A stretch of 64,000 nt of DNA from Bryobacterales bacterium (GTDB lineage Bacteria > Acidobacteriota > Terriglobia > Bryobacterales > UBA6623). Both the position numbers and the translations under genes were made by a program. The stretch spans positions 648,683 to 712,682 of the forward strand of contig CBDFIK010000005.1 of the NCBI GenBank assembly GCA_965248105.1, read 5' to 3'. Below, piece by piece: positions 7,416-55,857 of the stretch. A model generated the notes under the pieces. The model made no database searches and had not been told where the DNA came from. It worked only from the letters and a program-made list of their open reading frames with translations. How positions within the stretch are numbered: the stretch's first letter is position 1; every line of letters starts with the position of its first letter.

Positions 7416-7768
7416 GTGAAAAAATCGGGGACTGCCACAAGCGGCTTAGCACTAACTTCTCTAATGTCAGTGAGTGTTGAAGCCGCGGCCGGCCCTTCCG
7501 GGAATTCCCTCTCAAGCGTATTGAGCGGTACGTTCGCTGGCGAAATCGCGAACAACCACAGCCGCGAAGCGGCGGCAGGAACATAGCCTGGGGTGGAGCC
7601 GAAGGCGGAACCCCAGGTAGGGAATCGAACGAGCTGGAGCCCTGAAAGGGCGGCAGGAATGCAGTCCGTTAACCCGACCTGACTACCCGAGCCGCCGACA
7701 CCGATTTTCACGGCGGTATTGTGAATTCGCGGATTCATAGACGCTGGCTGTCCCCAAGATTTTTTCAC
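7416..7768. repeat. 353-bp MITE-like element (family F) between fdnG and fdnH
   Basis: Left end is GTGAAAAAATCGGGGACTGCC (7416-7436). Right end is GGCTGTCCCCAAGATTTTTTCAC (7746-7768), which is the reverse complement except for a 2-nt indel and 1 mismatch. Related 20-mers occur at 18233-18254 (inverted) and 58244-58264, with a half-site at 7850-7873. Confidence 0.6.
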
Positions 7769-7867
7769 AGGCTGCCAATCACCAATTTTCTGTCTGCTGC
7801 GTCGAGGCGCGCGTTGAAACACACAGAGGAAATTGGCTGACAGTCGTCATTTCCCAAGCCCCCATTT

Positions 7868-14374: not shown

Positions 14375-15982
14375 TTACTCTCTCAGACCAAAAGTAAGAA
14401 GAGTAAGGCCCGCTTTCACGGACACGTACTGCTTGCCATCGACAAGGTAGGTAATAGGTGAGTTGTCCGTTCGAGCGCCGAGGTTTTTTCTCCACAGCAA
14501 CTTGCCGGTCTCGACGTCGAGGGCTATGAAATTACCCTCTATGCTGCCTGAGAACAGGACGTCACCGGCGGTCGTCAGCAATCCCGATTCGGAAACCTCC
14601 CTCATCTTGAACTCCCACTTTCTTTCTCCCGTCTCGGGATCGAGCGCGCGGATGGCCCCGTAGCCTGCATCCTCTTCCGCCATGTGGTTAGGATAGATTC
14701 TTTCCACAAGGCTGCCATCGTAGCGGTTGCCGGCGGTGTAGATCGGTTCGCCCAAGTAAAACACGCCCCAGTAATCCGCCCAAACCGACAAGTAAAAAAG
14801 ACCCGTTCTGGGGCTGTAGGAGGGTGCATACCAGTTGGTCGCTCCTTGCGCCGCCGGGTAAACCTTAACGCCTTCTTTCGTTGGTTCCGTACCCGGCAGT
14901 TTGATGGGCCGGCCGTTTTCGTCGAGGCCCTTGGCCCAGGTTTGCTTGGCAAACGGCTTTCCCAGCAGGAATTCTCCTGTCGCGCGGTCCAGCACGTAAA
15001 AGAAAGCATTGCGGTTGCCCCACAGCATCAACTTGCGCGGCCGCCCGCGAAACTCTCTGTCCACCAGCACCGGAATTTGAACCGCGTCCCAGTCCCAAAC
15101 GTCGTGCGGCGTGAACTGGAAATGCCATTTCAGCTTGCCGGTATCAACGTCAAGGGCCACGACGGAACCGGTGTAGAGATTGTCGCCGGGGCGTACGTCG
15201 CCATTCCAATCAGGGCTGGGATTGCCAATGCCCCAATAGACCAGGTTCAGGTCTGGATCGAACGATCCCGTCACCCAAGCCGAGCCGCCGCCCGTCTTCC
15301 AAGCGTCGCTCTCCCAAGTCTCGTGGCCCGGCTCGCCAGGGCCGGGTATGGTGTAGAAGCGCCAAGCTTGTTCTCCGGTCTTAGCGTCATAGGCGTCAAG
15401 GTAGCCGCGAATGCCGTACTCGCCGCCCGCGGTTCCGACGATGACCTTATCCTTGACCGCTAGGGGAGCCACGGTCACGGTATAGCCTTTCGTGTTGTCA
15501 CAGACCTGTCGGTCCCAAAGAACGTTCCCGGTTTTCGCGTCGAGCGCCAGCAGCCGGCCATCGAGCGTTCCCGTAAAAACCCGATCGTCGAGGAGAGCGA
15601 CCCCGCGGTTCGAGCGGGCAACTGTGTTGACCCTCTTCGGCAAAGTGTGGACGTAGGTCCAGAACCTGCGGCCGGTCTTGGCGTCGAGCGCTATGACATT
15701 GTTATTTCCTTCGGTCAAGTACATGATGCCGTCAACAACCAGCGGCGTCGCCTGTAGCTTGCCTTCCGTGCCGGCATGAAACATCCACTTTAGTTCGAGG
15801 TCACCAACGTTCTCCCGGGTGATCTGTTTCAGTCCACTGTAATGCTGGCTTTTATAGGTCCCCGAATAAGTTGCCCAATTCTGGGGGTTGGCTTCGGCGC
15901 TGAGCAGATCTTCGTAGCTGACCTGGGCTGTCAACACAAGCGCCCACAAAAGAAGAAAGATCATGCGTCCGAGAGGTTTCAT
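14375..15982 (-). CDS. PQQ-dependent dehydrogenase (8-bladed quinoprotein, methanol/ethanol-dehydrogenase superfamily), secreted
   Basis: Signal peptide. N-terminal NPQNWATYSGTYKSQHYSGLKQIT...NVGDLELKWMF...ATPLVVDGIMY...ALDAKTGRRFW and repeated ALD..TGK..W propeller motifs. Only one Cys in the whole protein. Confidence 0.8.
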   Translation of the reverse strand: MKPLGRMIFLLLWALVLTAQVSYEDLLSAEANPQNWATYSGTYKSQHYSGLKQITRENVGDLELKWMFHAGTEGKLQATPLVVDGIMYLTEGNNNVIALDAKTGRRFWTYVHTLPKRVNTVARSNRGVALLDDRVFTGTLDGRLLALDAKTGNVLWDRQVCDNTKGYTVTVAPLAVKDKVIVGTAGGEYGIRGYLDAYDAKTGEQAWRFYTIPGPGEPGHETWESDAWKTGGGSAWVTGSFDPDLNLVYWGIGNPSPDWNGDVRPGDNLYTGSVVALDVDTGKLKWHFQFTPHDVWDWDAVQIPVLVDREFRGRPRKLMLWGNRNAFFYVLDRATGEFLLGKPFAKQTWAKGLDENGRPIKLPGTEPTKEGVKVYPAAQGATNWYAPSYSPRTGLFYLSVWADYWGVFYLGEPIYTAGNRYDGSLVERIYPNHMAEEDAGYGAIRALDPETGERKWEFKMREVSESGLLTTAGDVLFSGSIEGNFIALDVETGKLLWRKNLGARTDNSPITYLVDGKQYVSVKAGLTLLTFGLRE

Positions 15983-38768: not shown

Positions 38769-41153
38769 ATGCCAGGCTTTTCAATTGTTACCAACGTAGC
38801 GTCGTTGATCGCCCAGGAAAAACTGGGTTTTACCAATGACCTGCAACTGCGAACTATTACGAGGCTGACGTCGGGCCTCCGTATCAACTCCTCGGCGGAC
38901 GACGCGGCCGGGTTGGCCATTGCCAACCGGTTCCGGTCCGATATTTCGGTGTTGCAACAAGGCGTTCGAAACGCCGCGGACGGACTCAGCACCCTGCAAA
39001 CCATCGACGGCGGCCTCAACAACATTTCGCTGCTGATTGACCGTGCCAGAACGCTGGCCACGCAGTCGGCATCCGGCACGTTTACGGGCGACCGAGCCGT
39101 GCTGAACACCGAGTTCACATCGGTTCTCACCGAAATCGACCGCCAGGCCCAGGCTATCGGCCTCGATCCGAGCGGCTCATTCAACGCGCTGCTGTCGGTA
39201 TTCATCGGCGGCGGGCGCGCTAACAACAACATCACGGAGACCACCAACGGATCGGTTCAGATCGACCTAAGTAATTCGTCCGTCAATGCCAATAGGCTCG
39301 GCCTGAAGGGTGTCCAAGCGCTAGGAGGCACTGAGGGGACCACCGATATCGGCAGTTCCTCGACCACCAGCGTGCAATCAATCGCCGCGGATACGACGAA
39401 CACGGGCTCGGTGCGCACCAGCGGCTTTACGGAGTTTCACTTCGTCGGCCCCGGTTTCGCGGACACGGATCAGGCGCAGCTTTCCGTGAACCTAACGGGT
39501 GTGGTCGACACCACGACCCTGGCCAGCGCGATCAATTCCGCCATTTCTGGGTTCTCGGTCAGCTCCTCCTCGGGGCAGGCCTTCAAGGACGCTGGCATCA
39601 AGGCCGTAATCAATACGGATACGACCGGAAAGCAGCAGTTGGCCTTCACCTCCAGCAGTACGGCATTTCAAGTGCAGGCCGGCGACCAATTGGCCAATGC
39701 GTTGCTCGGTAACTTCAGCAGCGGCGCGACCGGCGAATCGCTCAACGTCACCCGCACCGGCGCCGCGACGGGCGGTGTCGCAACGGCCGGCACCATCAAA
39801 GTTCGCATCGACGGTGGCGGGCTAACGACGGCGCAGACTCTTACCGTTACCGCAGCCGGCGGTGAGAATCAAACCGCTCTTACAGCCCTTCTGAACACCC
39901 AACTGCTGGCCAACACCAGCCTGGTTTCGGCCGGCTACTCGGTGTCGTCCGACGGCACGAACCTGACTATCACGAACGACGAGGGTGAGAGGTTCGACGT
40001 GATTGTCGCCGGGGACGTGGGCGACACGTTTGGGTTCGGTACGGGCGAGCTGGGCGGCGGCGTGCACGGCACGGCTACCGACGTGACCTACTCCACCATT
40101 ACCGGCAGCGCGGCTTTCGACAACACCGTCGGCGGAACCGCGACGCTTTCGATCTACGTCGAGGGTTCGGAAGGCGCCAGCTCCGAGACCTTGGCGGTCG
40201 TAGTCGCCACGGATACAACCGATGTCGAACTGGTCGACCAGATCAATTCCCTGATCCAGGCGAACTCCTTGTTGAGCACCACCGACATACAGGCTACGCA
40301 GACGGGCGGTACGATTACGCTTGCATCCGCCTCTGGCACGCTGTTCCGGATCTCGGTGGACGATCTCGCGACGCCTGCTCTGAAGTTCGGCGACAACGAT
40401 ACCGGCAGCATCACCGCCGGCACTTTCGCCGAAGCGGTGGACAGCACGAACTTCATCAACTCCGGGGGAGCCCAGGCGACAGCCTCCACGGCCTTCACCA
40501 GGCTCAACTTCGGAGATGACGTTCAAAGCCTGGCCTTCAGCGCGAAGGACTCGGCCGGCGTGGTCCAGAACCTGGTCGTGAACCTCAGTTTCGCTAATTC
40601 GTTCACGCTTGACCAGGCGGTCGACAGGATCAACAGTGAGTTGCAGGCATCGAACAACAGCACGCTGAAACAGATCGTGGCTGTGAAAGAGAGAGTTGCC
40701 GGCGGTACCACCGAGAATATCCGTTTCCTCAGTACGCTGTCGTCCGGTTTCTCGGTGAGTATTGGCGACTTGGTCAACGACCACGGTGTTGCCAACACGG
40801 ACTCGAGCGCCCTACTGAAGGCTTCCACGCAGCTCGCGGGAGGCTCGGTCGCCGACATCTCTTCGAAAGAAAACGCGGAGACCGCGGTGACGCTGCTGGC
40901 GACCGCCGTGTCGAAACTGGCGGCGGTTCAAGCCGACGTCGGTAAGGGCCAGAACCAGTTACAATTCGCGATTGGTCTGGCTACGACTCAGATCACCAAC
41001 CTCTCGGCTGCCGAAAGTCGGATCCGAGATGCCGACCTGGCGGCTGAAGCGGCCAACCTTACTCGAGCCGCCATTCTGCAGCAGGCCGGCGTGGCTGCAC
41101 TGGCGCAAGCCAACTCCGCGCCACAAGCCGTTCTGGCACTGCTACGAGGATAA
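38769..41153 (+). CDS. fliC: Flagellin, giant form (794 aa) with a repetitive central region
   Basis: N-terminal D0/D1 (LRINSSADDAAGLAIANRFRSDISVLQQGVRNAADGLSTLQTIDGGL) and C-terminal D1/D0 (QNQLQFAIGLATTQITNLSAAESRIRDADLAAEAANLTRAAILQQAGVAALAQANSAPQAVLALLRG). The ~550-aa insert holds four IN-motif-like modules. Confidence 0.9.
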   Translation: MPGFSIVTNVASLIAQEKLGFTNDLQLRTITRLTSGLRINSSADDAAGLAIANRFRSDISVLQQGVRNAADGLSTLQTIDGGLNNISLLIDRARTLATQSASGTFTGDRAVLNTEFTSVLTEIDRQAQAIGLDPSGSFNALLSVFIGGGRANNNITETTNGSVQIDLSNSSVNANRLGLKGVQALGGTEGTTDIGSSSTTSVQSIAADTTNTGSVRTSGFTEFHFVGPGFADTDQAQLSVNLTGVVDTTTLASAINSAISGFSVSSSSGQAFKDAGIKAVINTDTTGKQQLAFTSSSTAFQVQAGDQLANALLGNFSSGATGESLNVTRTGAATGGVATAGTIKVRIDGGGLTTAQTLTVTAAGGENQTALTALLNTQLLANTSLVSAGYSVSSDGTNLTITNDEGERFDVIVAGDVGDTFGFGTGELGGGVHGTATDVTYSTITGSAAFDNTVGGTATLSIYVEGSEGASSETLAVVVATDTTDVELVDQINSLIQANSLLSTTDIQATQTGGTITLASASGTLFRISVDDLATPALKFGDNDTGSITAGTFAEAVDSTNFINSGGAQATASTAFTRLNFGDDVQSLAFSAKDSAGVVQNLVVNLSFANSFTLDQAVDRINSELQASNNSTLKQIVAVKERVAGGTTENIRFLSTLSSGFSVSIGDLVNDHGVANTDSSALLKASTQLAGGSVADISSKENAETAVTLLATAVSKLAAVQADVGKGQNQLQFAIGLATTQITNLSAAESRIRDADLAAEAANLTRAAILQQAGVAALAQANSAPQAVLALLRG

Positions 41154-45232: not shown

Positions 45233-47683
45233 CTAGAAGGGTCGGACCACCCCGATGGCCAGGCGGCCGGCCGAGTCGCGCGCAATGTCAGCTTCCGCTC
45301 GCACCCTTGTCATCCAGTCCAAGTAACGGAGGCCGACGCTGCCATCCGAATGGAGCGTCATCACGCAAAATCCGTTGTTGCCGCGCCCTTGGCGCAGGCC
45401 GGTGGAAGCTGGGAAACGAGCCTGTGTTTCCAGGAACTCAAGTGGCGCCGGTGACGGCTCGCCGTGCCGTTTGCGTCCGTAGGGAAAGCCCCCGTGCCCA
45501 ATGCAGCTTCCAATGAAAGGGCTCTCGGTCCCGTGGTTGAACAAGGCACAGTAGTGAGTATTGCCCCAGAACCACATGTCAATCAGCTGCCGGCCGGCCA
45601 GATCGAGCAGGTCCGACGTCAACAGATCGGTCGGTGCTTCCTCTCCGTATTCGTACGGATGATTGGCGCTGAACAGAATGTTCGAGCGGCCCGATTGCCG
45701 GCCGTCCACGAGCCGTTCTTCCAGCCAGCCCAGAAGAGCTGCCTGCCCAAAGCGCCCGTCCTCATGGTAGGCCGTGTCGATCCCGATCAGCTGAAACTTT
45801 TCTGACTCAAGAGCAAAGTAACTACCCTCCTGCCGCTGCCGCCCGGGGTGATCCTGCCTTTTCCGATCGATGTAGTCAAAGTACCAGCGCGCGCCGCGGT
45901 ACATCTCGTGGTTGGCGTTGAGAAAGAACAGTTCCGTCTGTCCCACAACGTTCTGGAGGGGCCTCCGGACAAAGTTTCGGAACTCGCCTTTGCGGCCGGC
46001 ATAGTACACATCCCCGCAATGGATACCCAATGGAAAGCGGCGGTCTTCGAGTTGTTTGGAGATATAGTTCGACTGGTATTCGCCCGTTCCCCAGTCGCTC
46101 AACAGCGCCACCTCGAGGGGCGATTGCGCGGAGGGCTCGGGCAGCCGGTAGCGGAATTGGGTGGTGAAGTTTTCGTGTTCGCGGAAAGGCGCTTTTCCGG
46201 CACCGAACAAGAAGGGGACGGTGGTATGGAGAATCCAGCGAAACGCATCGCCGGCTGGCTCGAATCTGCGCCGGCCGGGGTTGATCGGATACCGCTCCAA
46301 GTCAATCCCGGGAAAGCTGAAGTCGTCCGGCAACCTTTCCGCGGCGGATTCGAGGCTTTCCGCGGCGAGCAAGGAGCGTTCCGCACCCCGCGGGTTCTGG
46401 AGGGCAAAGCGCACGTCCTCCAGAGCCTTATCGAGCTGATCCTCGGTCAAATTCTGATCAACCGCCCGCCGGAAGAACTCCAGAGTTTCGCGCGGTTCAC
46501 GGAAGAGACGTTGCTGAATCTCTGCTACGTTCTCCAGGCTGAGGTCCGGCTCATCGTCCTCGTCTTCGGGAGTCTCCACCGGCAGCCCGGATGCCACATC
46601 GACGCTACGGCGCAGCAGAGCACAATCCGATTCCGAGGTAGGGATGCGATTGAACGAGACGTCGAGCTTCTCGAAGACACTGTGGATGTTGCATGCCAGA
46701 GCATTCTCCGCTTCCGGAGCGGGATCTGATTCCCCAGCGAAATGCAGCCCGACAACCACATTCTGGTGCTCACCCTCAGCCATGATCCAGACACTGCCTG
46801 AATCGCCGCCACTCGAGACTTCGCCGTCACTGGGAAGATGCTCGGGGTCCGGCCGTATCTCGAATCCCCCAATCTCGCGCACCCCCACTCCGCGGTAAGA
46901 GATGTTCGACGTGACACCGGTCCGTGTCACAATCCCGCGGGTGACGCCCGTAGTGCGTCCCGACTTTGCAACCCGGTCGCGCAGCTCGACCTTTCCGATT
47001 CTGCGCTCGGGGATCACATCGAGTCCCACGATGCGTTCGTCAAAGCCGCGGTCCTCGATGGAAGCGATCGCACAGTCGCCGGCCAAGCCAAGGTGACTGC
47101 GCACAAGTCTTCCTGTGAAGTCCTTCCGTCGGGATCCCCCGTCGTGGGCGCCGGGTTGGATTACCCGATCCCCGATCTCGCCTGTACCCCCTTGTAGTAC
47201 ATGCCAGTTGCTCAAGACGTAGGGCTGGCCCGTTCGCCTGTCGTAGACGATGGCCCCGAGCGTACCCGCACTCACGTCCTTGTGAGCGATACTGATGCCC
47301 GGTTGGATGGGGTCTTGGCGGGTGCGCCGAATCTGGCGGACGCTGGGCGAATCTGCTTCCGCGCCCTCTCGCTCTGGGACAATGATAACCGTGGGCTCGT
47401 AAACGCGCTTGGTAACCTGGACCCGCACCTGATTCCCGTATTCGTCGTCAACGTAATCGGGTAGCTTCTCGAGCCCCTTCTCGTCGAGACTCTCCAGCGC
47501 GACCTTTTCCTCCACCGTGAACTGAATGCACAGTTCGTCCGTTTCCTCGCCCGTCGTCTTGTCGATCCGGTAGCCGACACCAACGGATGTGACTCCCTTT
47601 GTGTTCAGATAACGCTGCGCCCTGCGGCGCACCAGCTTGATAAGTTCCTGCTCAGTCGGCTTTTTCCGATTGGTTTTCGCCAT
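45233..47683 (-). CDS. Fusion protein: chymotrypsin-fold (S1-like) serine protease + purple-acid-phosphatase-like metallophosphoesterase; no signal peptide
   Basis: Triad contexts LSNWHVL (His), GDCAIASI (Asp), GGDSGSVW (Ser). An acidic helical linker of ~180 aa follows. The phosphoesterase motifs appear in order: LSDWGTG, CGDVYYAG, NANHE, SANHP, GNTHY, IGHGG. Confidence 0.75.
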   Translation of the reverse strand: MAKTNRKKPTEQELIKLVRRRAQRYLNTKGVTSVGVGYRIDKTTGEETDELCIQFTVEEKVALESLDEKGLEKLPDYVDDEYGNQVRVQVTKRVYEPTVIIVPEREGAEADSPSVRQIRRTRQDPIQPGISIAHKDVSAGTLGAIVYDRRTGQPYVLSNWHVLQGGTGEIGDRVIQPGAHDGGSRRKDFTGRLVRSHLGLAGDCAIASIEDRGFDERIVGLDVIPERRIGKVELRDRVAKSGRTTGVTRGIVTRTGVTSNISYRGVGVREIGGFEIRPDPEHLPSDGEVSSGGDSGSVWIMAEGEHQNVVVGLHFAGESDPAPEAENALACNIHSVFEKLDVSFNRIPTSESDCALLRRSVDVASGLPVETPEDEDDEPDLSLENVAEIQQRLFREPRETLEFFRRAVDQNLTEDQLDKALEDVRFALQNPRGAERSLLAAESLESAAERLPDDFSFPGIDLERYPINPGRRRFEPAGDAFRWILHTTVPFLFGAGKAPFREHENFTTQFRYRLPEPSAQSPLEVALLSDWGTGEYQSNYISKQLEDRRFPLGIHCGDVYYAGRKGEFRNFVRRPLQNVVGQTELFFLNANHEMYRGARWYFDYIDRKRQDHPGRQRQEGSYFALESEKFQLIGIDTAYHEDGRFGQAALLGWLEERLVDGRQSGRSNILFSANHPYEYGEEAPTDLLTSDLLDLAGRQLIDMWFWGNTHYCALFNHGTESPFIGSCIGHGGFPYGRKRHGEPSPAPLEFLETQARFPASTGLRQGRGNNGFCVMTLHSDGSVGLRYLDWMTRVRAEADIARDSAGRLAIGVVRPF

Positions 47684-47752
47684 CTTTGGGACTCCTGAGA
47701 CCAGAATTTAGTTGAGTAGCGCCCTCAGCTTGTCCTCATTTCCCTTCTTCAC

Positions 47753-50071
47753 CTAGGGCCTCTTCACGAACACTCGCTGCAGCAGTTCGTTCTCGGCGGG
47801 CAAGAAACGTCCGCCCGGGTCCATCTTGAGGCGCACTTCGTTGAACTCGTCCCAGATGTCGCCGTAAAGATGCTTCATATCCGCGAACGTAGCCGTGGTC
47901 TTCTTCCCCAAGTGCGACCGGGCATCGTAGTTCGCGCGCAACAAGTCGTCAAACCGGCTGAAAACCTGGCGAATGCGTTTTCGCGAATATTCCCCCAGAG
48001 GAGCCGCGAGTTCGAGGTAGCACGTCCGCCCGCCGGTGCCCGGTCCGATCATGGCTTCGGAGGCGTCGGGGGTAAAACGCACCTCGATAACCGTGCGCAT
48101 CTCCTCCTCCAGCAGAAGCTCCTGCACCTCCCCGAGCGCTTGCTGGTAACGCGAGTATTGCGGTTTGCCGTTCTTGACGGGCAAAGAAATGCCGACTTCG
48201 ATCTCGTCGTGCTGAAAGTACAGCTTGCGAGCAAACGCGTCCTTCGCGGCCAGCACCAACGGTTTGCGCTTATTCAGATTCTTCAGCATGTCGTCCGCAT
48301 CGGGATCGTCGGGATTTCCCGGGTCCGGCGCCGTCAACCGCGCCAGTCTCAGCAGCGCGTTCGGCAAGAACGCCGAGCCGACGTGATCGAGAATCTCCCG
48401 CGAGGACTTCAGCAGCTCGGCGTTGTTCGAGATCGGCTCGTTGGTCCGCTTCCAGCCGTTGAGCCGAACGGTCGGCAAGTCCTCGCCGCCCCCGCCGGCG
48501 TAGTAAAAGCTGACATGGTCGTAGGCGAACAACTCCTTCGGCTGTTTCTTCTTGAGCAACTCGCCAATCGTGTCTTCCGCCCACTTGCGCGGCACCAACT
48601 GCTGGGTCTTTCGGAAGTTGAACGCCGCATCCAGTTTGAGCATCACCTCGACCACGACGCCGCAAACCCCCAGGGCTCCCGCGACGGGCAGCCGTGAAAG
48701 CTTACGGGCCCGCGCGGGCCGAGGCGGCCGCCAAATCCATCGCCCGGGCTTGCCGCGAGCTACGCTCTCGTCCTTGACAAACAAGTGCTCGGCGCCGTTT
48801 GCGTCAAGCACTTTGAGTTCGAGCAACTGTTGCGACAGAAAGCCCGCGCTGTGTCCGGTCGAGTGGAGATCCGTCGCGATCAACCCGCCGATACTCTGAG
48901 CGTCGGTCGAGCCGGCGACCGGCAACGCCAGGCCCGTATTGCCCATCTTTGAAACGGCCTTCGTGAAGTCGCGCAGCCGCATGCCCGCGGAGGCACGGAC
49001 CACGCGATCCGCCTGATCTCCCTTGAGGTTGTATTTGGCGGCTTCGTTGGGATCTACGATATTGACCCGCTTTCCAGAGGCGAGCTTGTAATTATCAAGC
49101 GTCACGAGACCGCCGATCCGCTTCTTCCTCTTGCCGCCCATCGAGGAAGCGATATTGAAGGCGTGCCCGCCGGCGGCCATGCGTAATGGATCATTCTTCC
49201 GGATCTCGTCTTTTACCGCGGCCAAGTTTTTGGGCTTCCTGTATTTCTTCGGGTAGACTGTGATGTCACGGTTCCAGTTGACCCACTTCCTGCGGATACG
49301 GAACCACTTCGATTCATGATCGACGGCGCCGAACGGGCGCGCCAGCAGATTCAACACGTTGCGCAGGTGAGCCGCGCGCGCCGCCCGTCCGGGCTTGTCG
49401 ACGTCACTCAAGGTGAGGCCCTTGACGAACGTTCTCAGCTTCGCGGCCGCCTGGTTGACCTTCTCGACCAAGGCCGGGTTGTCCGTGTCGTGCGCGGAAT
49501 GGAACTCATCACTGGCTTTCAGCGTACCGCTGAGATCCTTCGCGGCCCTCAGAAACGCCGTGCCCTTTTGATCGCGAAAATAGGCGATCGGAACCGCGCT
49601 GAGCACGTCATCGAGAAAGTCGTCCTTCCGTGCCTTGTTCAGCTCCTTGTGCCGCTCGGCATACTTCCTGAGCCGGTTGATCTGCGCTTCGTGGCGGAAA
49701 TAATCCGGGTGATCCCTGATGAGCTTGCGGATGTAAGCGATCTCGAACTTGTGCACGGCGCCGACATCTTCGGCCAGGCGCAGGAGCTCACTGATGTCGA
49801 CATCGTGGAACCGGCCGCCGGGGCGCTCCGCCCGTCGGCTCAAGAAGATCTTGACGTAGTCCCTCATGCTGCGCGCTTCGAGCACGTGATTCGGATCCCG
49901 GAAGTATCCGGCAGGAAAAGGGAAAGGGTTGACGGGGGGAGTCGGCATGGGAATTCTCGTTAGTTTAGAACTATAACCCGGCAATTCCACGCTGCGGCGC
50001 GCGTTTAACCCGGGATTTTTGAGTTGGAGTCTGTCGCGGTCATGGTACACGGCTCGCGGCCGGGAACGCAA
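47753..50071 (-). CDS. FAD-linked oxidase of the gulonolactone/arabinonolactone oxidase type with a ~280-aa helical N-terminal extension
   Basis: PCMH-type FAD domain (AAGGHAFNIASSMGG, GSTDAQSIGGLIATDLHSTGH). ALO-type C-terminus (RSHLGKK...FNEVRLKMDPGGRF). The N-terminal region matches no family I recognise. An alternative ATG at 49948 would start MPTPPVNPFPFPAGY. Confidence 0.75.
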   Translation of the reverse strand: MRSRPRAVYHDRDRLQLKNPGLNARRSVELPGYSSKLTRIPMPTPPVNPFPFPAGYFRDPNHVLEARSMRDYVKIFLSRRAERPGGRFHDVDISELLRLAEDVGAVHKFEIAYIRKLIRDHPDYFRHEAQINRLRKYAERHKELNKARKDDFLDDVLSAVPIAYFRDQKGTAFLRAAKDLSGTLKASDEFHSAHDTDNPALVEKVNQAAAKLRTFVKGLTLSDVDKPGRAARAAHLRNVLNLLARPFGAVDHESKWFRIRRKWVNWNRDITVYPKKYRKPKNLAAVKDEIRKNDPLRMAAGGHAFNIASSMGGKRKKRIGGLVTLDNYKLASGKRVNIVDPNEAAKYNLKGDQADRVVRASAGMRLRDFTKAVSKMGNTGLALPVAGSTDAQSIGGLIATDLHSTGHSAGFLSQQLLELKVLDANGAEHLFVKDESVARGKPGRWIWRPPRPARARKLSRLPVAGALGVCGVVVEVMLKLDAAFNFRKTQQLVPRKWAEDTIGELLKKKQPKELFAYDHVSFYYAGGGGEDLPTVRLNGWKRTNEPISNNAELLKSSREILDHVGSAFLPNALLRLARLTAPDPGNPDDPDADDMLKNLNKRKPLVLAAKDAFARKLYFQHDEIEVGISLPVKNGKPQYSRYQQALGEVQELLLEEEMRTVIEVRFTPDASEAMIGPGTGGRTCYLELAAPLGEYSRKRIRQVFSRFDDLLRANYDARSHLGKKTTATFADMKHLYGDIWDEFNEVRLKMDPGGRFLPAENELLQRVFVKRP

Positions 50072-50184
50072 GCAGTTTCCGCCTTGGAACGGACTGGGGA
50101 ATCACATCGAAGGGTTCGGCGGCGAAAAGATGCACGGGCGGCTGAAGGCGAACTTATTTCAAGCATTTGTCGCCGCCCTCTTTA

Positions 50185-50772
50185 TTAGTTGTGCTTTGAG
50201 GACGGCGAATTACCCGGCGGTTCAGTGTCCATGAAGTGGTAACAGATCATGTGGCAGACAATCATATGGCCGTCCTCGATACGGCCCATGTGTGTGTCAT
50301 CGACATGGACGTTGAGTTTGACGAACGCTGCGAGCTTGCCGCCGTCTCGGCCGCTAAGACCAATCGTGTAACAGCCGATGGAGTTGGCTTCTTCGATAGC
50401 ACGAATCACGTTCGGGGAGTTTCCGCTGCCGCTTAGCACCATCACGATATCCCCGGGCCGGGCGAAATTCTTCAACTGTTCGACAAAGACCGCGTCATAA
50501 CCCACATCATTGGCGTACGCGGTCAGAGTCGGGATCTGCTCGCTAAGCGACATGATCCGGAAGCGCTTCGGATGCCGGTAGCTGGCGCCCTTCACCATGT
50601 CGCAAGCGAAGTGGTTCGCTGTAGCGGCGCTCCCCCCATTGCCACAGACGAAGATTTGCCGGCCCTCCTCGCGCGCCTTGGAGAAAACGTCAATAGCCTT
50701 CTGCACTTGGTCGAGATCAATCGTCTCAAGAGCGTGAAGAAGCTTGGCCTTGTATTCGCTGGGAAAATTCAT
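50185..50772 (-). CDS. SIS-domain sugar-phosphate isomerase, GmhA (sedoheptulose-7-P isomerase)-like
   Basis: IFVCGNGGSAATANHFACDM and VLSGSGNSPNVIRAIEEA motifs typical of the GmhA/DiaA SIS family. Confidence 0.8.
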   Translation of the reverse strand: MNFPSEYKAKLLHALETIDLDQVQKAIDVFSKAREEGRQIFVCGNGGSAATANHFACDMVKGASYRHPKRFRIMSLSEQIPTLTAYANDVGYDAVFVEQLKNFARPGDIVMVLSGSGNSPNVIRAIEEANSIGCYTIGLSGRDGGKLAAFVKLNVHVDDTHMGRIEDGHMIVCHMICYHFMDTEPPGNSPSSKHN

Positions 50773-50952
50773 AGCTTACTGTTGCCGTCCTACTGCCCAG
50801 TGAGAAGAAATTCGGTCGGACAGGAAACCTTGCCTGTCCGGCCACAGGGCTGCACGATTACGACGACTTACGAGACTAGTCGGCGACTCGAAGCCGCGTG
50901 AAATAGGTTCCTCAACAACCTGCTAGGGTGACTTGACCCGCTCACCCGCGGA

Positions 50953-51942
50953 TCAGCTCGGCAGAGAGTTTGCTCTTGCCAATACCTGTGACGGCGCTGC
51001 CACGCCAGTGCCTTCTTTCGTGATCGTAACACTGGAGACCAGATTGCCGAATCGCACCGCCTTCTCGAAGTCACCGGTCGCGTACAAAGCCAGCGCCATG
51101 CCCGCGGCGAAACTGTCGCCCGCTCCACAGATGTCGACTGGTTTCTCAATATCAACGGTGGGGACAAGTTGTTCCCCATGGTCATGCACCAGGAGGGCGC
51201 CCCGCTTGCCCTGTGTCACGACGAGCGGGTGATCGCCGATCTTCTCACGCAGGCGCTGGTAGTTGGTCTCACCGAAGAGCTTCCGGCTGGCCTCATTGGC
51301 TTCTTGCAAGTTGGGCTTGGCGATGACATTTCGAAACAACTCGATGCGGGCTCGCGAATCGACAATAACAATCTTGTCGGGGTTGCGCTCAGAGACGTCG
51401 GCAATCACCTCTCGGAATAAGTCCGAGAGGACCCCTCCCTTTTCAGTCTCGGCCTGGTCCGCTACGAGAATGACGTCGAAGCTTTCATACTCGGAGTGAA
51501 AGGTTGCAATAAGCTGATCTTCGATTTCGCCGGGCAGGGGCTTGGTATTAATGAAATCCAGTCGTGGGTGGTCTTCCTTTCCACTGCTGCCATTAATGAG
51601 CTTCGTATAGGTGAACGTCTGTATCTCAGGAGACGCAACCAACAGCCGATAGTCGATGTTTCGGCTTGCCAAGGATCGCTCGAGCTCAAACCCGAAGCCG
51701 TCCTGCCCAATAGCGCCCAAAACCGCCACACGGCCCGCCCCCAAAGCCGCCAGATTGTTGGCTATGGTTCCTCCGGCGCCTGGGGTAACCTCGGTTTCAA
51801 CGACGCCAATACGAGGGATACCCGTTTCGCGCGACGGCTCCGACGCCGCGGGGTCGTAACGGCACCAGCGGTCGAGACAGATGTCGCCCACGACCAGCGC
51901 GTGGCAGTCGGCGAACTGCTCGACCAGGGTTTCCCAGTTCAT
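50953..51942 (-). CDS. PfkB-family carbohydrate kinase, HldE/RfaE domain-I (heptose-7-P kinase)-like
   Basis: ALVVGDICLDRWCRY...PRIGVVETEVTPGAGGTIANNLAALGAG...DICGAGDSFAAGMA. ATG 51942 overlaps the upstream stop in an ATGA. No fused adenylyltransferase domain. Confidence 0.8.
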   Translation of the reverse strand: MNWETLVEQFADCHALVVGDICLDRWCRYDPAASEPSRETGIPRIGVVETEVTPGAGGTIANNLAALGAGRVAVLGAIGQDGFGFELERSLASRNIDYRLLVASPEIQTFTYTKLINGSSGKEDHPRLDFINTKPLPGEIEDQLIATFHSEYESFDVILVADQAETEKGGVLSDLFREVIADVSERNPDKIVIVDSRARIELFRNVIAKPNLQEANEASRKLFGETNYQRLREKIGDHPLVVTQGKRGALLVHDHGEQLVPTVDIEKPVDICGAGDSFAAGMALALYATGDFEKAVRFGNLVSSVTITKEGTGVAAPSQVLARANSLPS

Positions 51943-52913
51943 GGCGATTCCCCGTCCAGGATAGCTTGGCGCAGAGCGGGCCAGACGGCGCGGTGGTCTC
52001 CACATACATAGAAGCTGCTCCCGCCATCGGCCACCGTCCTGACCAGCATTGTCTTATGGGGGCGAAAATAGTAGCCCGGGTCGGTCTTGGGAAGCTCTTT
52101 TCGATAGTCCCCTTGAATGGGCACCAGATCGAAAACCGCCGTCGTAAGATTCTTGATAACCCGGCCCTGCTGGTGAGCGACATTGCGGGCCATGGCCAAG
52201 GCTTTTAGAAAAACCTCGGGGCCCATGATCGCGGAACCGAAGTTCAGCAGCACACCACCTTCGAGGTTTTCGACCGCTCGCGTGAAAACCAGGAAGTCGC
52301 GGTAGCTTGACTTGCCCACGGCCGCGCCGTCGCAATTGGGATGTTCATGAATGATGTCATAGCCGAGGCCGACGTGCACCGTCGCCGGGATCGATTGCTC
52401 GTAGGCCGTCGCGAAAAGGCTGACGTCTCGGTGAGGATACTCGCTGTCCAGAATCCGGCGGCCGACATTTTCGCCCAGGCCCAGATCGAGCTCCGCCGCT
52501 TCACACGTCCACTCGTTCAGAACGCCGGTTTCTTCCCACAGTCCGAACTCCCCGCTGCGAATGTAGCGCGCCACGCTCTCCGTGGTTGCCCCGATACGCG
52601 CCAGTTCGTAGTCGTGGATGGCTCCCGCACCGTTCATAGCCAGGTGGGTGAATACGCCCCGACGCAATAAATCGACCACCACGCGCGAGACCCCCATCTT
52701 TATCACATGGGCGCCCATCATCAGAATGCGTGCGGCACCACTAGAGCGAGCGTCGTTAACCCGCTCGGCGATCGTGATCAGGTCCGGGTGCCCCCACTCG
52801 CCGACAGGGTCATCCAATTCCAGAAGATAATCGATCTCCATGTCGTGCTTGCGCTCCGCCAAGGGGCGCAAGTGCAGCCGACTGCGATCGAATACCGGGT
52901 ACTTGGACTTCAT
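51939..52913 (-). CDS. Uncharacterised protein, possibly deoxyhypusine-synthase-like (DHS-like NAD-binding fold)
   Basis: 324 aa. ILMMGAHVIKMGVSRVVVDLLRRGVFTHLAMNGAGAIHDYELA resembles the DHS ...SSGIR..I..LV....VD.LVTTAGGVEEDL segment by eye only. Translationally coupled on both sides by ATGA overlaps. Confidence 0.45.
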   Translation of the reverse strand: MKSKYPVFDRSRLHLRPLAERKHDMEIDYLLELDDPVGEWGHPDLITIAERVNDARSSGAARILMMGAHVIKMGVSRVVVDLLRRGVFTHLAMNGAGAIHDYELARIGATTESVARYIRSGEFGLWEETGVLNEWTCEAAELDLGLGENVGRRILDSEYPHRDVSLFATAYEQSIPATVHVGLGYDIIHEHPNCDGAAVGKSSYRDFLVFTRAVENLEGGVLLNFGSAIMGPEVFLKALAMARNVAHQQGRVIKNLTTAVFDLVPIQGDYRKELPKTDPGYYFRPHKTMLVRTVADGGSSFYVCGDHRAVWPALRQAILDGESP

Positions 52914-53821
52914 GCCGGAAACAACGAGTTCATCAGTTCCGCGTGGCCCCGAAAGTGGGGGACGATCCAGTCGGCGCCCACGGCCGCCAGCCTTTTGCGT
53001 TTCACTGGATCAACCTTCTCGCAAGCCGGCTCGTCCGTGGCCACGCCTACCGCCACGCCGCCGACCTCCTTGACGTTCTCGATCTCGACGAAGCCGTCCC
53101 CAAATCCGAGAAACTCCTCACCCTCAAAGTCGCTGTCGCGGATGAGTTTTTCAATCAAGATCTTCTTGGAAAACTTCTTGTAATCGTCCAGCGCTCCGTA
53201 CACGCCGTCGAAATAGGAATCCACGTGCAACAGAGCAGCTTCTTCGCGCATGTAGGGTTGATCCGTGCCACTGGCTAAATAAAGTATCAGGCCTCTTTCC
53301 TTGAGGGACTCGATCAGGCGCCGGACGCCGGGAACCATCATCTCGTCGGGGGAAAGACTCTCGGACCGCAGCTGCTCGATGCGGTGTCGAATCTTATCCA
53401 TCAATCGATCGAGGTAAATGTGTTTGTACTCCAGCGGATCGCGCGGCTTCCCGCCGCGCTTGCGGATCTGCTCAGCGAATTCGATCATCTGGTAGATCGT
53501 CTGCCGCCCTGTCAAATGGCCCACGTAGCCCTCTACCAGCGTTCGAAGTTCTTCTTCGCTTTCTCCCGTGTCGAGCCCCAGCAGCTCCTCCACCATCATG
53601 GGGACCATGACGTCAACCCACCCTGCTCGAATCAGCGAGACCGTCCCGTCAAAGTCAAACAATGCGACCCGGGCACGGGACGCGGTCGCCCCCGGGGATA
53701 AGCACTCAATATAGGATTCCATCCTGGTTTGGTACAGCGGGGCAGGAACGTTTCCCATCTGACGGGCTGTTTCACCCCGTTCCCGGCCGTCCGCCGGGCT
53801 GATTCTCAATCTTACCGACAC
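52910..53821 (-). CDS. HAD-superfamily hydrolase/phosphatase
   Basis: Motif I ALFDFDGTVSLIRAGW, ...LASGTDQ..., GFGDGFVEIENV. The start is uncertain (53821, 53758 or 53722). Confidence 0.7.
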   Translation of the reverse strand: MSVRLRISPADGRERGETARQMGNVPAPLYQTRMESYIECLSPGATASRARVALFDFDGTVSLIRAGWVDVMVPMMVEELLGLDTGESEEELRTLVEGYVGHLTGRQTIYQMIEFAEQIRKRGGKPRDPLEYKHIYLDRLMDKIRHRIEQLRSESLSPDEMMVPGVRRLIESLKERGLILYLASGTDQPYMREEAALLHVDSYFDGVYGALDDYKKFSKKILIEKLIRDSDFEGEEFLGFGDGFVEIENVKEVGGVAVGVATDEPACEKVDPVKRKRLAAVGADWIVPHFRGHAELMNSLFPA

Positions 53822-53893
53822 TGCCCCTTCCGAAGCACCCTCGGGCTGCTCGGTCGCTGCAAATCGGTCGGTGCCTCTGACTGCTGCAAAGCT

Positions 53894-55081
53894 CTACGAC
53901 GCGCCGCTACCGACGACCGCGCACCGATGAGAGTCGTGGGATCGTGTCTTGCGATAGATAAGAGCACCGACTGCGGGGAGCTGATTCAGTAATTCAATTC
54001 CAATCTCGCCCACCGTCGGGTGGCACAACAGGCGCGAGGCCAGGTGTCCCCACTTCCGGTTGGCGTGGTAATGGCGGTGCCACCAACGTTCGTAGTTGAG
54101 CTGCGCCGAGCGGAGGGTTTGTTTTCCTTTCATCGCCTGAGAGACCAGGTCGGCGCAAACCACCGCGGATCGCATCGCTCCGGCCACGCCCACACCCAGA
54201 AAAGGAGCCATCACGCCGGCGCTGTCGCCGACCATAAAGACCCCGTTGGCGACTTGCTCTTTAGGAACGAAGGAAACTTGTCCGATCGTCAACAGACTGT
54301 CTTCGAAAGGCGAAGCGTCGCGCATGGACTCGGCCAAGAAGGGGTTCTCGCGCCGGGCCGCCCCGATCAGCTTCTCCGGGCGCCCCCCGTTCTGGCGTAA
54401 GGCTTGTTCGGTGGCCAGTAGGCAGATGTTCGTTCGGTCGCCCTCGATCCCTACCACGCCGCAGTAGCCGCCCGGGAAAAGATACAGTTCTACGTTGTCG
54501 CCCCGGCCCATACCGGCGAAGTGGCATTTGACGCCGACGTAAGGGCTTCTCTCGACCAGAAACTTGCGCCCCAGCACCCGGTCCAGATTGGAGCGTTTGC
54601 CCTGTGCGCCGATGACGACCCGAGAGCGAATCGCGCCGCGCGGCCGGGGAGATTCGCTACGTATCCTAACCTCGTAGCCGGTGTCGGAGGCTGGGGAAAC
54701 ACTCTCCACAAAGGCGCCTTCGTGGACGCGCACCCCCAGCTTCGCCGCCTGCGCGAGGAGCACGGAATCCATAGCGCGTCGGCTGATGCCGAGACCCTCC
54801 TCGGCCAGGGGCAAGGAATAGGGCCGCCCGCCTGTTCCATACAGAATCATCCGGCGCACGCGGGTGGGACAGCAGCCCATGATTTCTTCGTACAAGCCGA
54901 GCTCGCGCAAGGACGCGGTGGCTTCACCCGAGACAAATTCCCCGCAAAAGCGATGGGGACGCCGCGACGATTTCTCGAGCAACAGCACATCGACGCCGGC
55001 CCTGCGTAGCGCAATCGCGGCACAACAACCGGCCACACCCGCCCCAACGATGGTCGCCTCAGCTTGGAGATTCCCGCTCAT
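53894..55081 (-). CDS. FAD-dependent oxidoreductase (geranylgeranyl-reductase/aromatic-hydroxylase-like)
   Basis: N-terminal dinucleotide fold ATIVGAGVAGCCAAIALRRAGVDVLLLEK, later VFMVGDSAGVMAPFLGVGV. Confidence 0.8.
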   Translation of the reverse strand: MSGNLQAEATIVGAGVAGCCAAIALRRAGVDVLLLEKSSRRPHRFCGEFVSGEATASLRELGLYEEIMGCCPTRVRRMILYGTGGRPYSLPLAEEGLGISRRAMDSVLLAQAAKLGVRVHEGAFVESVSPASDTGYEVRIRSESPRPRGAIRSRVVIGAQGKRSNLDRVLGRKFLVERSPYVGVKCHFAGMGRGDNVELYLFPGGYCGVVGIEGDRTNICLLATEQALRQNGGRPEKLIGAARRENPFLAESMRDASPFEDSLLTIGQVSFVPKEQVANGVFMVGDSAGVMAPFLGVGVAGAMRSAVVCADLVSQAMKGKQTLRSAQLNYERWWHRHYHANRKWGHLASRLLCHPTVGEIGIELLNQLPAVGALIYRKTRSHDSHRCAVVGSGAS

Positions 55082-55857
55082 CGTTCGCTGTTGTCGTCGA
55101 TCACGGTCATTCGATAATACAGCCCTTCCGTGTACACGCGCGCGCTTTCGAGGCCGGCGTCTGCCAGGATCGACCGTATCTCCGACGGCGTGTAGGCCCG
55201 AAAAATGGAAACCTCGCCGTCGTGACGGGTGAGCCGGCTTCTCGCGAAAACAGGCGCCGACATCCGGAAGAAAAGGTAGGGAACCCGATCGCGAACTAAA
55301 TCATTCAGAACCAGAGTGCCGCGACAAACCGCCTTCAGCGCGGGCAGGATCTCGAGTAACTCGGCTCGACTGAAATGGTGCAGAAACAGCATCGATAGAA
55401 CGAAGTCGAATGACGCCGGGGGAAAAGGAAGCGCCGTGACGTCGGCGGCCAGCAGTTGGATTTCCGCGTACTCCGAAACGTTCTCCCGAGCGATGTTCAA
55501 GTGCCGCCAATTAATGTCAAGGGCAACAATTTCGACGGGGATTTTGTGACGCCGCGCCCAGAGCGCGATCTCGAGCGGCACGGCGGCCGATCCGGTGCCG
55601 ACATCGAGGATGCGCAGCCGACGTTTCGTCCCAGCTTGGCGCATCCGGGGAAACAGGAACCGTCGCAGCGCCGCCCGCCCACCCAGCCAGCGATTGATTC
55701 GGCTGATGTCGGAAAGACTTTCTCGAACGTCGTCGAGCGACCCGCGCTGAAGGTCAAGCCACTCCGGCCGATCCTGCCGGGTCGGGATAGCTGTCCAGCG
55801 GTCGAGCAAAGGGATCATGGAGCAATCTCCATCGGGCTTCCGAACAGACCAGCGCAA
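55078..55857 (-). CDS. Class I SAM-dependent methyltransferase
   Basis: Motif I RILDVGTGSAAVPLEIA, post-I ALDIN, motif II LLAADVTALPF. Its stop overlaps the next start in an ATGA. An alternative ATG lies at 55818. Confidence 0.8.
   Translation of the reverse strand: MRWSVRKPDGDCSMIPLLDRWTAIPTRQDRPEWLDLQRGSLDDVRESLSDISRINRWLGGRAALRRFLFPRMRQAGTKRRLRILDVGTGSAAVPLEIALWARRHKIPVEIVALDINWRHLNIARENVSEYAEIQLLAADVTALPFPPASFDFVLSMLFLHHFSRAELLEILPALKAVCRGTLVLNDLVRDRVPYLFFRMSAPVFARSRLTRHDGEVSIFRAYTPSEIRSILADAGLESARVYTEGLYYRMTVIDDNSER

Follow-up and report, generated by a model that had tools for sequence, protein, structure and literature searches.

Do two adjacent genes of unusual composition in a Bryobacterales genome form one functional unit, and if not, what does the locus encode? 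The question is raised by a 64,000-nucleotide (nt) stretch of DNA (the window; assembly GCA_965248105.1, contig CBDFIK010000005.1, positions 648,683 to 712,682 of the forward strand), in which a preliminary description made from the sequence had picked out a gene for an 816-amino acid (aa) protein joining a protease to a phosphoesterase, together with a gene for a flavin-dependent oxidase directly upstream, and had read the two as a module. The comparisons reported here separate them. The 816-aa product joins two complete proteins end to end, each of whose families is also found separately, and the interest of the locus lies in the protease-effector family exposed by this fusion rather than in a two-gene module. 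Positions of the fusion gene and its parts are given in window coordinates.

45233 to 47683, minus strand: gene, stop codon included, for a fusion of a NAL1-like protease and a metallophosphoesterase (MPE) resembling purple acid phosphatase (PAP), delimited by open reading frame (ORF), translation, ribosome-binding site, orthologues and an AlphaFold 2 (AF2) model.
46649 to 47683, minus strand: N-module, residues 1-345, predicted to be a NAL1-like serine protease whose core is of the alpha-lytic-protease type (triad, PDB profile match, Foldseek).
47201 to 47203, 47075 to 47077 and 46799 to 46801, minus strand: codons of the triad residues H161, D203 and S295, respectively.
46124 to 46648, minus strand: helical N-terminal domain of the MPE module, residues ~346-520 (alignment to stand-alone homologues, AF2).
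45236 to 46123, minus strand: PAP-like catalytic domain, residues ~521-816 (invariant motifs, Foldseek).
47684 to 47752, minus strand: 69-nt spacer separating the stop codon of the oxidase gene from the start of the fusion gene (sequence, promoter and terminator scan).

The ORF encodes 816 aa by ORF call and translation and carries an AGGAG ribosome-binding site 8 nt 5′ of its ATG, inside the 69-nt spacer, in which the promoter and terminator scan found no terminator-like hairpin. Origin of the fusion by an assembly artefact, i.e., a frameshift or missed stop unique to one assembly, had been considered in the preliminary description and is excluded, because homology searches recovered 29 full-length orthologues (796-839 aa, 44-90% identity) from separate, independent assemblies. 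The closest relatives come from Bryobacterales metagenome-assembled genomes (MAGs; ~90% identity). The N-terminus of the window protein (MAKTNRKKPTEQE...) is basic and hydrophilic, in agreement with the signal peptide reported as absent, and the fusion is accordingly predicted to be cytoplasmic. All of the sequence motifs on which the S1-type protease and PAP-flavoured phosphoesterase had been called on one chain (LSNWHVL, GDCAIASI, GGDSGSVW, SDWGTG, GDVYY, NANHE, SANHP, GNTHY and GHGG) are present in the 816-aa protein, and structure matches agree with both calls. Pfam matches of the window protein were weak and below gathering score (Trypsin_2, E 7e-3; Metallophos, E 9e-3, 16.8 bits against a cut-off of 21.5); orthologue P0024 scored 23.7 bits for Metallophos. 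With Pfam alone being weak, it is structure comparison, using an AF2 model with a mean predicted local distance difference test (pLDDT) score of 81, that makes the two domain calls firm.

For the N-module, structures of NARROW LEAF 1 (NAL1), an agronomically important rice protease, were matched by the AF2 model in Foldseek searches (8pmi, 7y77 and 8has; E 2e-18 to 1e-15) with target template modelling (TM) scores of 0.56-0.67 over ~400 columns, the N-terminal pre-core domain included, and the protease core matched alpha-lytic protease and SGPB with TM scores of 0.78-0.80. By sequence, a family profile searched against the PDB reached NARROW LEAF 1 chains (E ~5e-6); the Pfam models NAL1_N and Nal1_C gave no match to the window protein at E<=0.1, and its relatives narrowly missed the gathering score (22.9-26.6 bits, with cut-offs at 26.1-27). 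The triad residues H161, D203 and S295 occur in chymotrypsin-fold order and are invariant in alignments of 11 diverse N-modules and the 29 full-length orthologues. Judged from the model, the closest solved relative of residues 1-345 is rice NAL1 and the protease is specifically NAL1-like, with a predicted NAL1_N-like N-terminal domain preceding the alpha-lytic-protease-like core. The fold and His-Asp-Ser triad are common to rice NAL1 (PDB 7y77, 8pmi, 8has; PF25608 NAL1_N, PF25819 Nal1_C) and the fusion, but the window module is only 17-20% identical to NAL1 (TM ~0.6), and NAL1 is a plant regulatory protease without a fused hydrolase, whereas the bacterial module carries a phosphoesterase, a nuclease, a phospholipase A2 (PLA2) or another enzyme. 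Rice NAL1 assembles into a hexameric cage of two stacked trimers (PMC12012508).

The ~180 residues that follow the protease had been taken for an acidic helical linker. When residues 346-816 were used as the sole query, 634 matches were obtained, most of them stand-alone proteins of ~490 aa from Acidobacteriota, Myxococcota (Minicystis, Sorangium) and Chloroflexota, whose start Met aligns at the fusion junction. Because these homologues align from their own start Met, the supposed linker is instead the conserved N-terminal helical domain of a ~490-aa MPE family; AF2 predicted helices at 353-448 and 476-493 of the fusion. In the catalytic domain, predicted to be that of a binuclear PAP-like MPE, DxG (SDWGTG), GDxxY (GDVYY), NxNHE (NANHE), H710 (GNTHY) and H730 (GHGG) are invariant across alignments of the fusion and stand-alone MPEs, in which the candidate ligands D530, D558, Y561, N591, H592, H710 and H730 are conserved. 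The metallophosphoesterase series described earlier was thus recovered with all motifs present and most of them invariant, but the SANHP His varies among homologues (H/D/E/Q at this position). Set against the seven metal ligands of PAPs, which include both His of GHXH, the domain has invariant H710 and H730 but Gly in place of the second GHXH His. The PAP flavour attributed to the domain was upheld by the invariant GDxxY and by Foldseek matches to mammalian PAPs at E ~1e-13 (1war, 1qhw, 1ute and 2bq8; E 2e-13 to 7e-13, TM 0.65-0.68). Mammalian PAP is itself latent: a repression loop keeps it inactive until proteolysis activates it, and PDB 2bq8 represents the inhibitory repression-loop conformation. 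With these enzymes (PAP/TRAP) the C-module shares its fold and the DxG, GDxxY and GNHE-like motifs; it differs from them in its 12-14% identity, in having GHGG for GHXH, in its additional ~175-aa helical N-domain and fused protease, and in its predicted cytoplasmic location without a signal peptide.

The N-module recurs far beyond this fusion. A profile search over 1.84 billion cluster representatives (50% identity clusters) returned 680 family matches at E<=1e-30, 5,571 at E<=1e-10 and 10,260 at E<=1e-3. Among hundreds of proteins the ~345-aa module is ~50% identical between variants that carry different C-termini, namely MPE, PLA2 (PF00068, with a Cys-rich CxxHDxCY core), a Serratia-type DNA/RNA endonuclease (Endonuclease_NS, PF01223) and an SGNH-like hydrolase. 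No C-terminal tail was present in 47 of 118 complete-module representatives, and the rest had tails of 50-600 aa. Pfam analysis of 65 long representatives assigned Endonuclease_NS to 18, PG_binding_1 to three, Amidase_2, Peptidase_M74 and GH19 to two each, and LysM, S8 and PLA2 to one each. In a survey of 185,579 species (one genome per species), 361 family loci were found, spread over at least eight phyla (Acidobacteriota, Planctomycetota, Actinomycetota, Bacteroidota, Alphaproteobacteria, Cyanobacteria, Chloroflexota and Verrucomicrobiota) and including Nocardia, Rhodococcus, Streptomyces, Arthrobacter, Dyadobacter, Hymenobacter and Inquilinus besides cyanobacteria and planctomycetes; plasmid copies, annotated as endonuclease only, occur in Tsukamurella, Streptomyces and Rhizobium. 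The family is therefore large and sparsely and patchily distributed, with the protease module found alone or with one of several degradative enzymes. A phage origin was considered and rejected, as tblastn against 50,697 phage records gave a single marginal match (E 7e-4) and a pattern scan of IMG/VR returned no relative.

In a neighbour-joining tree of N-modules, the nuclease type formed its own clade and the MPE type branched inside the diversity of the PLA2 type, a single MPE member (P0030) being an outlier. Because clades follow effector type, effector swaps appear to have been few and old, not rampant. At L115:1823-5141, the outlier fusion P0030 is followed directly by a separate gene for an SGNH-like hydrolase, which shares 56% identity with the SGNH domain that P0120 carries fused to its protease; an effector domain thus occurs in either fused or adjacent form. 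No signal peptide was seen across family representatives, whose N-termini are short and, if extended, hydrophilic and Lys/Arg-rich. Tails of this kind range from ~8 to ~60 residues (e.g., MAKRKNQRRKAARKDARPERKTAKKAAQ) and were observed at window positions 47683-47650 and in P0286, P0292, P0302, P0423 and others; they may bind nucleic acids or membranes or act as a targeting signal.

The preliminary description had likened the architecture to conflict systems, and the resemblance extends to the family, in which a constant protease module is fused to swappable nuclease, PLA2, SGNH or peptidoglycan hydrolase domains. Alternative C-terminal nuclease, lipase and peptidoglycan-hydrolase domains on a constant N-terminus are shared with polymorphic toxin systems (Zhang et al. 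2012, PMC3482391). In contrast to these systems, the present family has no secretion or trafficking domain and no conserved downstream immunity gene, and its effector type follows deep clades instead of being shuffled among close relatives. Literature searches found no description of bacterial NAL1 homologues or of trypsin-like protease-effector defence fusions, and the earlier statement that no described system combines these activities is upheld. A constant module with alternative effectors is a known architecture; a NAL1-type constant part without secretion signal or immunity gene appears to be undescribed. In public databases, family members are labelled “hypothetical protein”, “metallophosphoesterase” or “DNA/RNA non-specific endonuclease”, and the latter two labels conceal the protease half of these proteins.

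We hold the anatomical and evolutionary account of the fusion and its family given so far with high confidence. What the protein does can be stated less firmly: that it is a self-contained, horizontally mobile protease with a latent hydrolase and a role in conflict or cell death is a proposition for which we see the chances as evenly balanced, and the specific mechanism of gating and conflict, drawn by analogy, is put forward tentatively, at somewhat short of even chances. Under this mechanism, the protease module, whose counterpart in rice NAL1 is cage-forming, would keep the attached hydrolase latent; cleavage at the module junction, near residue 345, would activate or free it, in a zymogen logic like that of latent mammalian PAP with its repression loop; and the freed hydrolase would destroy phosphate esters, with either nucleotides or the head groups of phospholipids as substrates. 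On this view the protein would serve in conflict (cell suicide, antagonism or autolysis) rather than in housekeeping metabolism.

Several observations weigh against this proposal. Self-cleavage, latency and toxicity are putative properties of the fusion. In the C-module, the second His of the GHXH motif is replaced by Gly (GHGG). No conserved downstream immunity gene was found by clustering of 80 genome loci and a survey of downstream genes, and no PADLOC-DB 2.0 model matched the fusion (or the oxidase) at E<=0.1. No clear defence-island signal emerged from the 132 ORFs that lie up to 2.5 kb from 35 diverse loci: no Pfam family or partner dominates among them, and they gave only scattered generic PADLOC matches. 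In four close relatives a SIS/PfkB/HAD operon lies on the strand of the fusion, with the fusion downstream, and co-transcription with this operon is possible, given the shared strand and a gap of only ~97 nt in two of them (L011 and L013). Finally, many of the C-terminal domains of the family (PLA2, Serratia-type nuclease, PG_binding/LysM, GH19 and PAP) are classically extracellular, so that release or secretion fits them better than action in the cytoplasm.

This last point is the basis of the main rival explanation, in which the proteins would be released or unconventionally exported degradative exo-enzymes used for scavenging of phosphate or nutrients or for lysis of neighbours, with the protease module either released alongside them as a protease or assisting folding or processing within its own chain, and exit occurring by lysis or an unknown route. 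The repertoire (PLA2, Endonuclease_NS, PG_binding_1, LysM, Amidase_2, GH19, M74, S8 and PAP) is of extracellular type, the protease core resembles the secreted bacteriolytic alpha-lytic protease and SGPB, and neighbouring genes often encode other proteases, oxidases or peroxidases; an immunity gene would moreover be needless if the enzymes were inactive in a reducing, low-Ca2+ cytoplasm. However, Sec/Tat signal peptides are lacking throughout the family, the N-terminal extensions being hydrophilic and rich in Lys and Arg, the host phyla are both Gram-positive and Gram-negative and have no specialised secretion system in common, and no recurrent secretion-system genes lie nearby. We regard export of this kind as unlikely, and retain the gated, conflict-type hydrolase as the preferred reading.

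Whether the oxidase belongs to the fusion could be decided by comparison of close relatives, for which the following features are needed.

47753 to 49948, minus strand: gene for a VAO-family flavoenzyme, most likely 731 aa, with FAD_binding_4 and ALO domains (Pfam, homologues, AF2, Foldseek).
~47765 to 50175, no strand assigned: segment corresponding approximately to the oxidase gene and absent from L011 and L013, a strain-level indel (tblastx and blastn synteny).
50185 to 50772, minus strand: SIS-domain (GmhA-like) gene, the last of a conserved upstream operon (Pfam SIS_2, 5.7e-24; synteny).

The preliminary description had treated oxidase and fusion as a two-gene module. In such a module the oxidase might work with the fusion, serve as its substrate or activate it, e.g., by pro-enzyme processing or H2O2-coupled effector activation. 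The two genes do have the same orientation and are 69 nt apart, with no terminator-like hairpin in the gap, and the order SIS, oxidase, fusion is found again in L091 and L093; it is kept only in relatives whose oxidase is at least 89% identical. In blastn comparisons of L091 and L013, 99.8% DNA identity extends through the upstream operon to the end of the SIS gene, after which L091 has an extra 2,576 bp, the oxidase gene, with no counterpart in L013, and 95% identity resumes in the fusion. Synteny gave the same picture in L011 and L013, where a 90%-identical fusion directly follows the SIS gene on the same strand after a gap of ~97 nt and the oxidase is absent. Orthologues of the oxidase at 81% and 78% identity adjoin a glycogen phosphorylase gene, a different conserved context, and those at 61% and 49% identity lie in other unrelated contexts, in each case without the fusion; conversely, no ALO-type oxidase was found near fusion orthologues at 66, 58, 55 and 50% identity (four loci). 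In this test with divergent genomes, adjacency was not retained in any other genome examined and is confined to the closest relatives. The clean 2.6-kb indel between near-identical strains is decisive against a conserved partnership, and the oxidase-fusion pair is largely refuted as a conserved module: the oxidase is an independent VAO-family enzyme that lies beside the fusion in one narrow Bryobacterales lineage, and the fusion does not require it. Adjacency in a single genome can, as here, be a strain-level accident. A functional link between the two proteins accordingly has, in our estimation, a very small probability.

Homology to every relative ends at the stop codon of the fusion, which therefore sits at a synteny breakpoint; a transposase lies downstream in L091. 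At the indel boundary, a ~150-bp repeat was observed just 3′ of the oxidase stop (L091:10194-10336 and 14678-14785; L013:1712-1864) that recurs elsewhere in the same genomes at 75-79% identity and may be a small mobile or recombination-prone element involved in the oxidase indel.

The upstream operon itself suggests a further explanation, namely that the fusion is a metabolic accessory whose PAP-like domain dephosphorylates a sugar phosphate, the protease being incidental or regulatory. In the window, six genes at 50185-55857 on the minus strand encode a methyltransferase, a FAD_binding_3 protein (geranylgeranyl-reductase-like), a HAD protein, a 324-aa protein without a Pfam match, PfkB and SIS, and the set is syntenic in related Bryobacterales at 87% DNA identity. 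The order of these genes followed by the fusion is kept in the window, L011, L013 and L091, and the short interval between SIS gene and fusion in L011 and L013 also speaks for the idea. The link to sugar-phosphate genes that had been proposed earlier has, however, no support beyond the genus: synteny holds only among relatives whose fusions are at least ~90% identical, with the SIS gene adjacent only in the closest relatives, more distant orthologues lie in unrelated contexts, and in the neighbourhoods of stand-alone MPE loci no association with SIS or PfkB genes was found. Because sibling variants carry nuclease, PLA2 and peptidoglycan hydrolase domains, a sugar-phosphate role is unlikely for the family, and for the fusion we assign it a small probability.

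The oxidase was examined as an enzyme in its own right. The 772-aa length given to it previously corresponds to the minus-strand ORF at 47753-50071 and rests on a mechanical TTG start at 50071. Since ~55 full-length homologues are 716-733 aa long and begin at MPxxxxxPFPFP, the ATG at 49948 is the likely start, and the protein most likely has 731 aa rather than 772; its position 69 nt upstream of the fusion and its strand stand as described. Its assignment as a GULO/ALO-type flavoenzyme was confirmed by Pfam matches above gathering score (ALO, 1e-13; FAD_binding_4, 2e-7) and by Foldseek with an AF2 model (pLDDT 88), in which L-galactonolactone dehydrogenase was the best structural match (8qmy, E 1e-20), with alditol oxidase (2vfs) and DprE1 also found; the His of GGHAF is invariant among homologues. 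FAD_binding_4, ALO and the VAO fold are shared with the VAO sugar-1,4-lactone oxidases/dehydrogenases and alditol oxidase (8qmy, 2vfs; TM 0.7-0.8). Unlike these, the window oxidase falls far below every NCBIfam subfamily cut-off (best TIGR01679, 74.6 bits against 292) and has a private helical N-domain. The earlier view that this region cannot be placed in any family holds, as a sequence search of the PDB gave no match at E<=10, Pfam gave none, and Foldseek against PDB and BFVD matched the flavoenzyme part only, but its length is ~210 aa (731-aa numbering) and not ~280.

Other oxidative enzymes recur beside other members of the family. In Acidobacteria, an operon at L075:6364-15103 (also L052, L053, L072, L081, L111 and L145) encodes, in this order, a GMC oxidoreductase, a NAL1-nuclease fusion, an alpha-dioxygenase and a stand-alone MPE, i.e., a set of eukaryote-like lipid-oxidising and degradative enzymes without signal peptides; the presence of stand-alone MPE and NAL1-nuclease in one operon provides a Rosetta-stone link between the two modules. 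The GMC protein (~1,180 aa) is cholesterol-oxidase-like (1coy, E 2e-24) and has large C-terminal repeats without an assigned domain, and the haem enzyme is closest to plant fatty-acid alpha-dioxygenase (4kvj, E 2e-117). The same GMC protein lies directly 5′ of the NAL1-MPE fusion in L014 and L015, and alpha-dioxygenase followed by MPE was found as a pair at seven metagenome loci. A tyrosinase gene lies 48 nt 5′ of a NAL1-nuclease gene on the same strand at L157:5912-8851 (Rhizobium sp. T1473 plasmid NZ_CP149877.1, 802 kb), a pair that is also present on two other Rhizobium plasmids. Genes for vanadium-chloroperoxidase-like proteins (1idq, E 2e-42) adjoin NAL1-nuclease genes (L061:8452-9963; L084:3056-4390 and 7752-9821) and lie upstream in a Chthoniobacteraceae MAG and a cyanobacterium, with a gene for a hemocyanin/tyrosinase-like protein directly upstream at the cyanobacterial chloroperoxidase locus. 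One PLA2 variant is followed by a multicopper oxidase joined to AhpC, and protease neighbours are common (M10 with PG_binding, S8, M28, astacin, C1 and C10). At L002:10513-15108, a 1,531-aa protein without a Pfam match is encoded 20 nt 3′ of a 50%-identical fusion orthologue, upstream of which lie genes for a GMC oxidoreductase and two small membrane-like proteins.

These neighbours bear on the oxidase-partner idea. The ALO-type oxidase is no fixed partner, but the repeated presence of unrelated oxidases and peroxidases next to other members of the family (six other families: GMC, alpha-dioxygenase-like, tyrosinase, hemocyanin-like, multicopper and vanadium-chloroperoxidase-like) is suggestive of a looser theme of an oxidase beside a protease-effector, the one form in which that idea survives. 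An adaptor domain common to the N-domain of the window oxidase and the extensions of the GMC oxidoreductase was considered and rejected, as BLAST gave no similarity between them.

When ORFs within 6 kb of 80 genome loci were clustered all against all, Nocardia-level synteny and a single cross-lineage cluster emerged, the latter being the large GMC oxidoreductase, encoded upstream at nine loci of Acidobacteria type, and the same clustering of 59 MPE loci and L097 gave only alpha-dioxygenase and GMC clusters. No neighbour family recurred across phyla in the 80-locus clustering, and downstream genes were heterogeneous. The family thus has the character of a mobile gene that stands alone, with no constant partner, and it matches no known defence system. 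Two loci look defence-like: one fusion orthologue (L005) lies among PDDEXK (PDDEXK_4), deaminase, Macro and HsdR genes, and at L096:4037-9959 a PLA2 variant and an AAA_21/RloB (AbiL-like) pair are flanked by an Ala_racemase_C fragment of 69 aa on one side and a complete alanine racemase gene on the other, which looks like a small island inserted at alr.

A still wider interpretation, rather improbable in our judgement, would make the family a new class of self-contained cell-death or antagonism devices in which a cage protease gates a latent nuclease, phospholipase, wall hydrolase or phosphoesterase, often with neighbouring oxidases, and which might plausibly be the bacterial source of plant NAL1; the neighbouring oxidases generating reactive oxygen species, halogenated products or quinones, together with a fatty-acid alpha-dioxygenase, would then be a prokaryotic counterpart of the oxidative-burst and wound responses of eukaryotes. 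To our knowledge, the wider NAL1 family is essentially unstudied, and the window fusion reveals hundreds to thousands of bacterial NAL1-like homologues. If the gating model were true, they would represent a new single-protein architecture for bacterial conflict and cell-death biology and a tractable model for substrate recognition and cleavage by NAL1-type cages.

Elsewhere in the window, a plus-strand gene (38769-41153) encodes a flagellin in which a ~580-aa middle without an assigned domain separates Flagellin_N and Flagellin_C ends, and which is unusually long at 794 aa.

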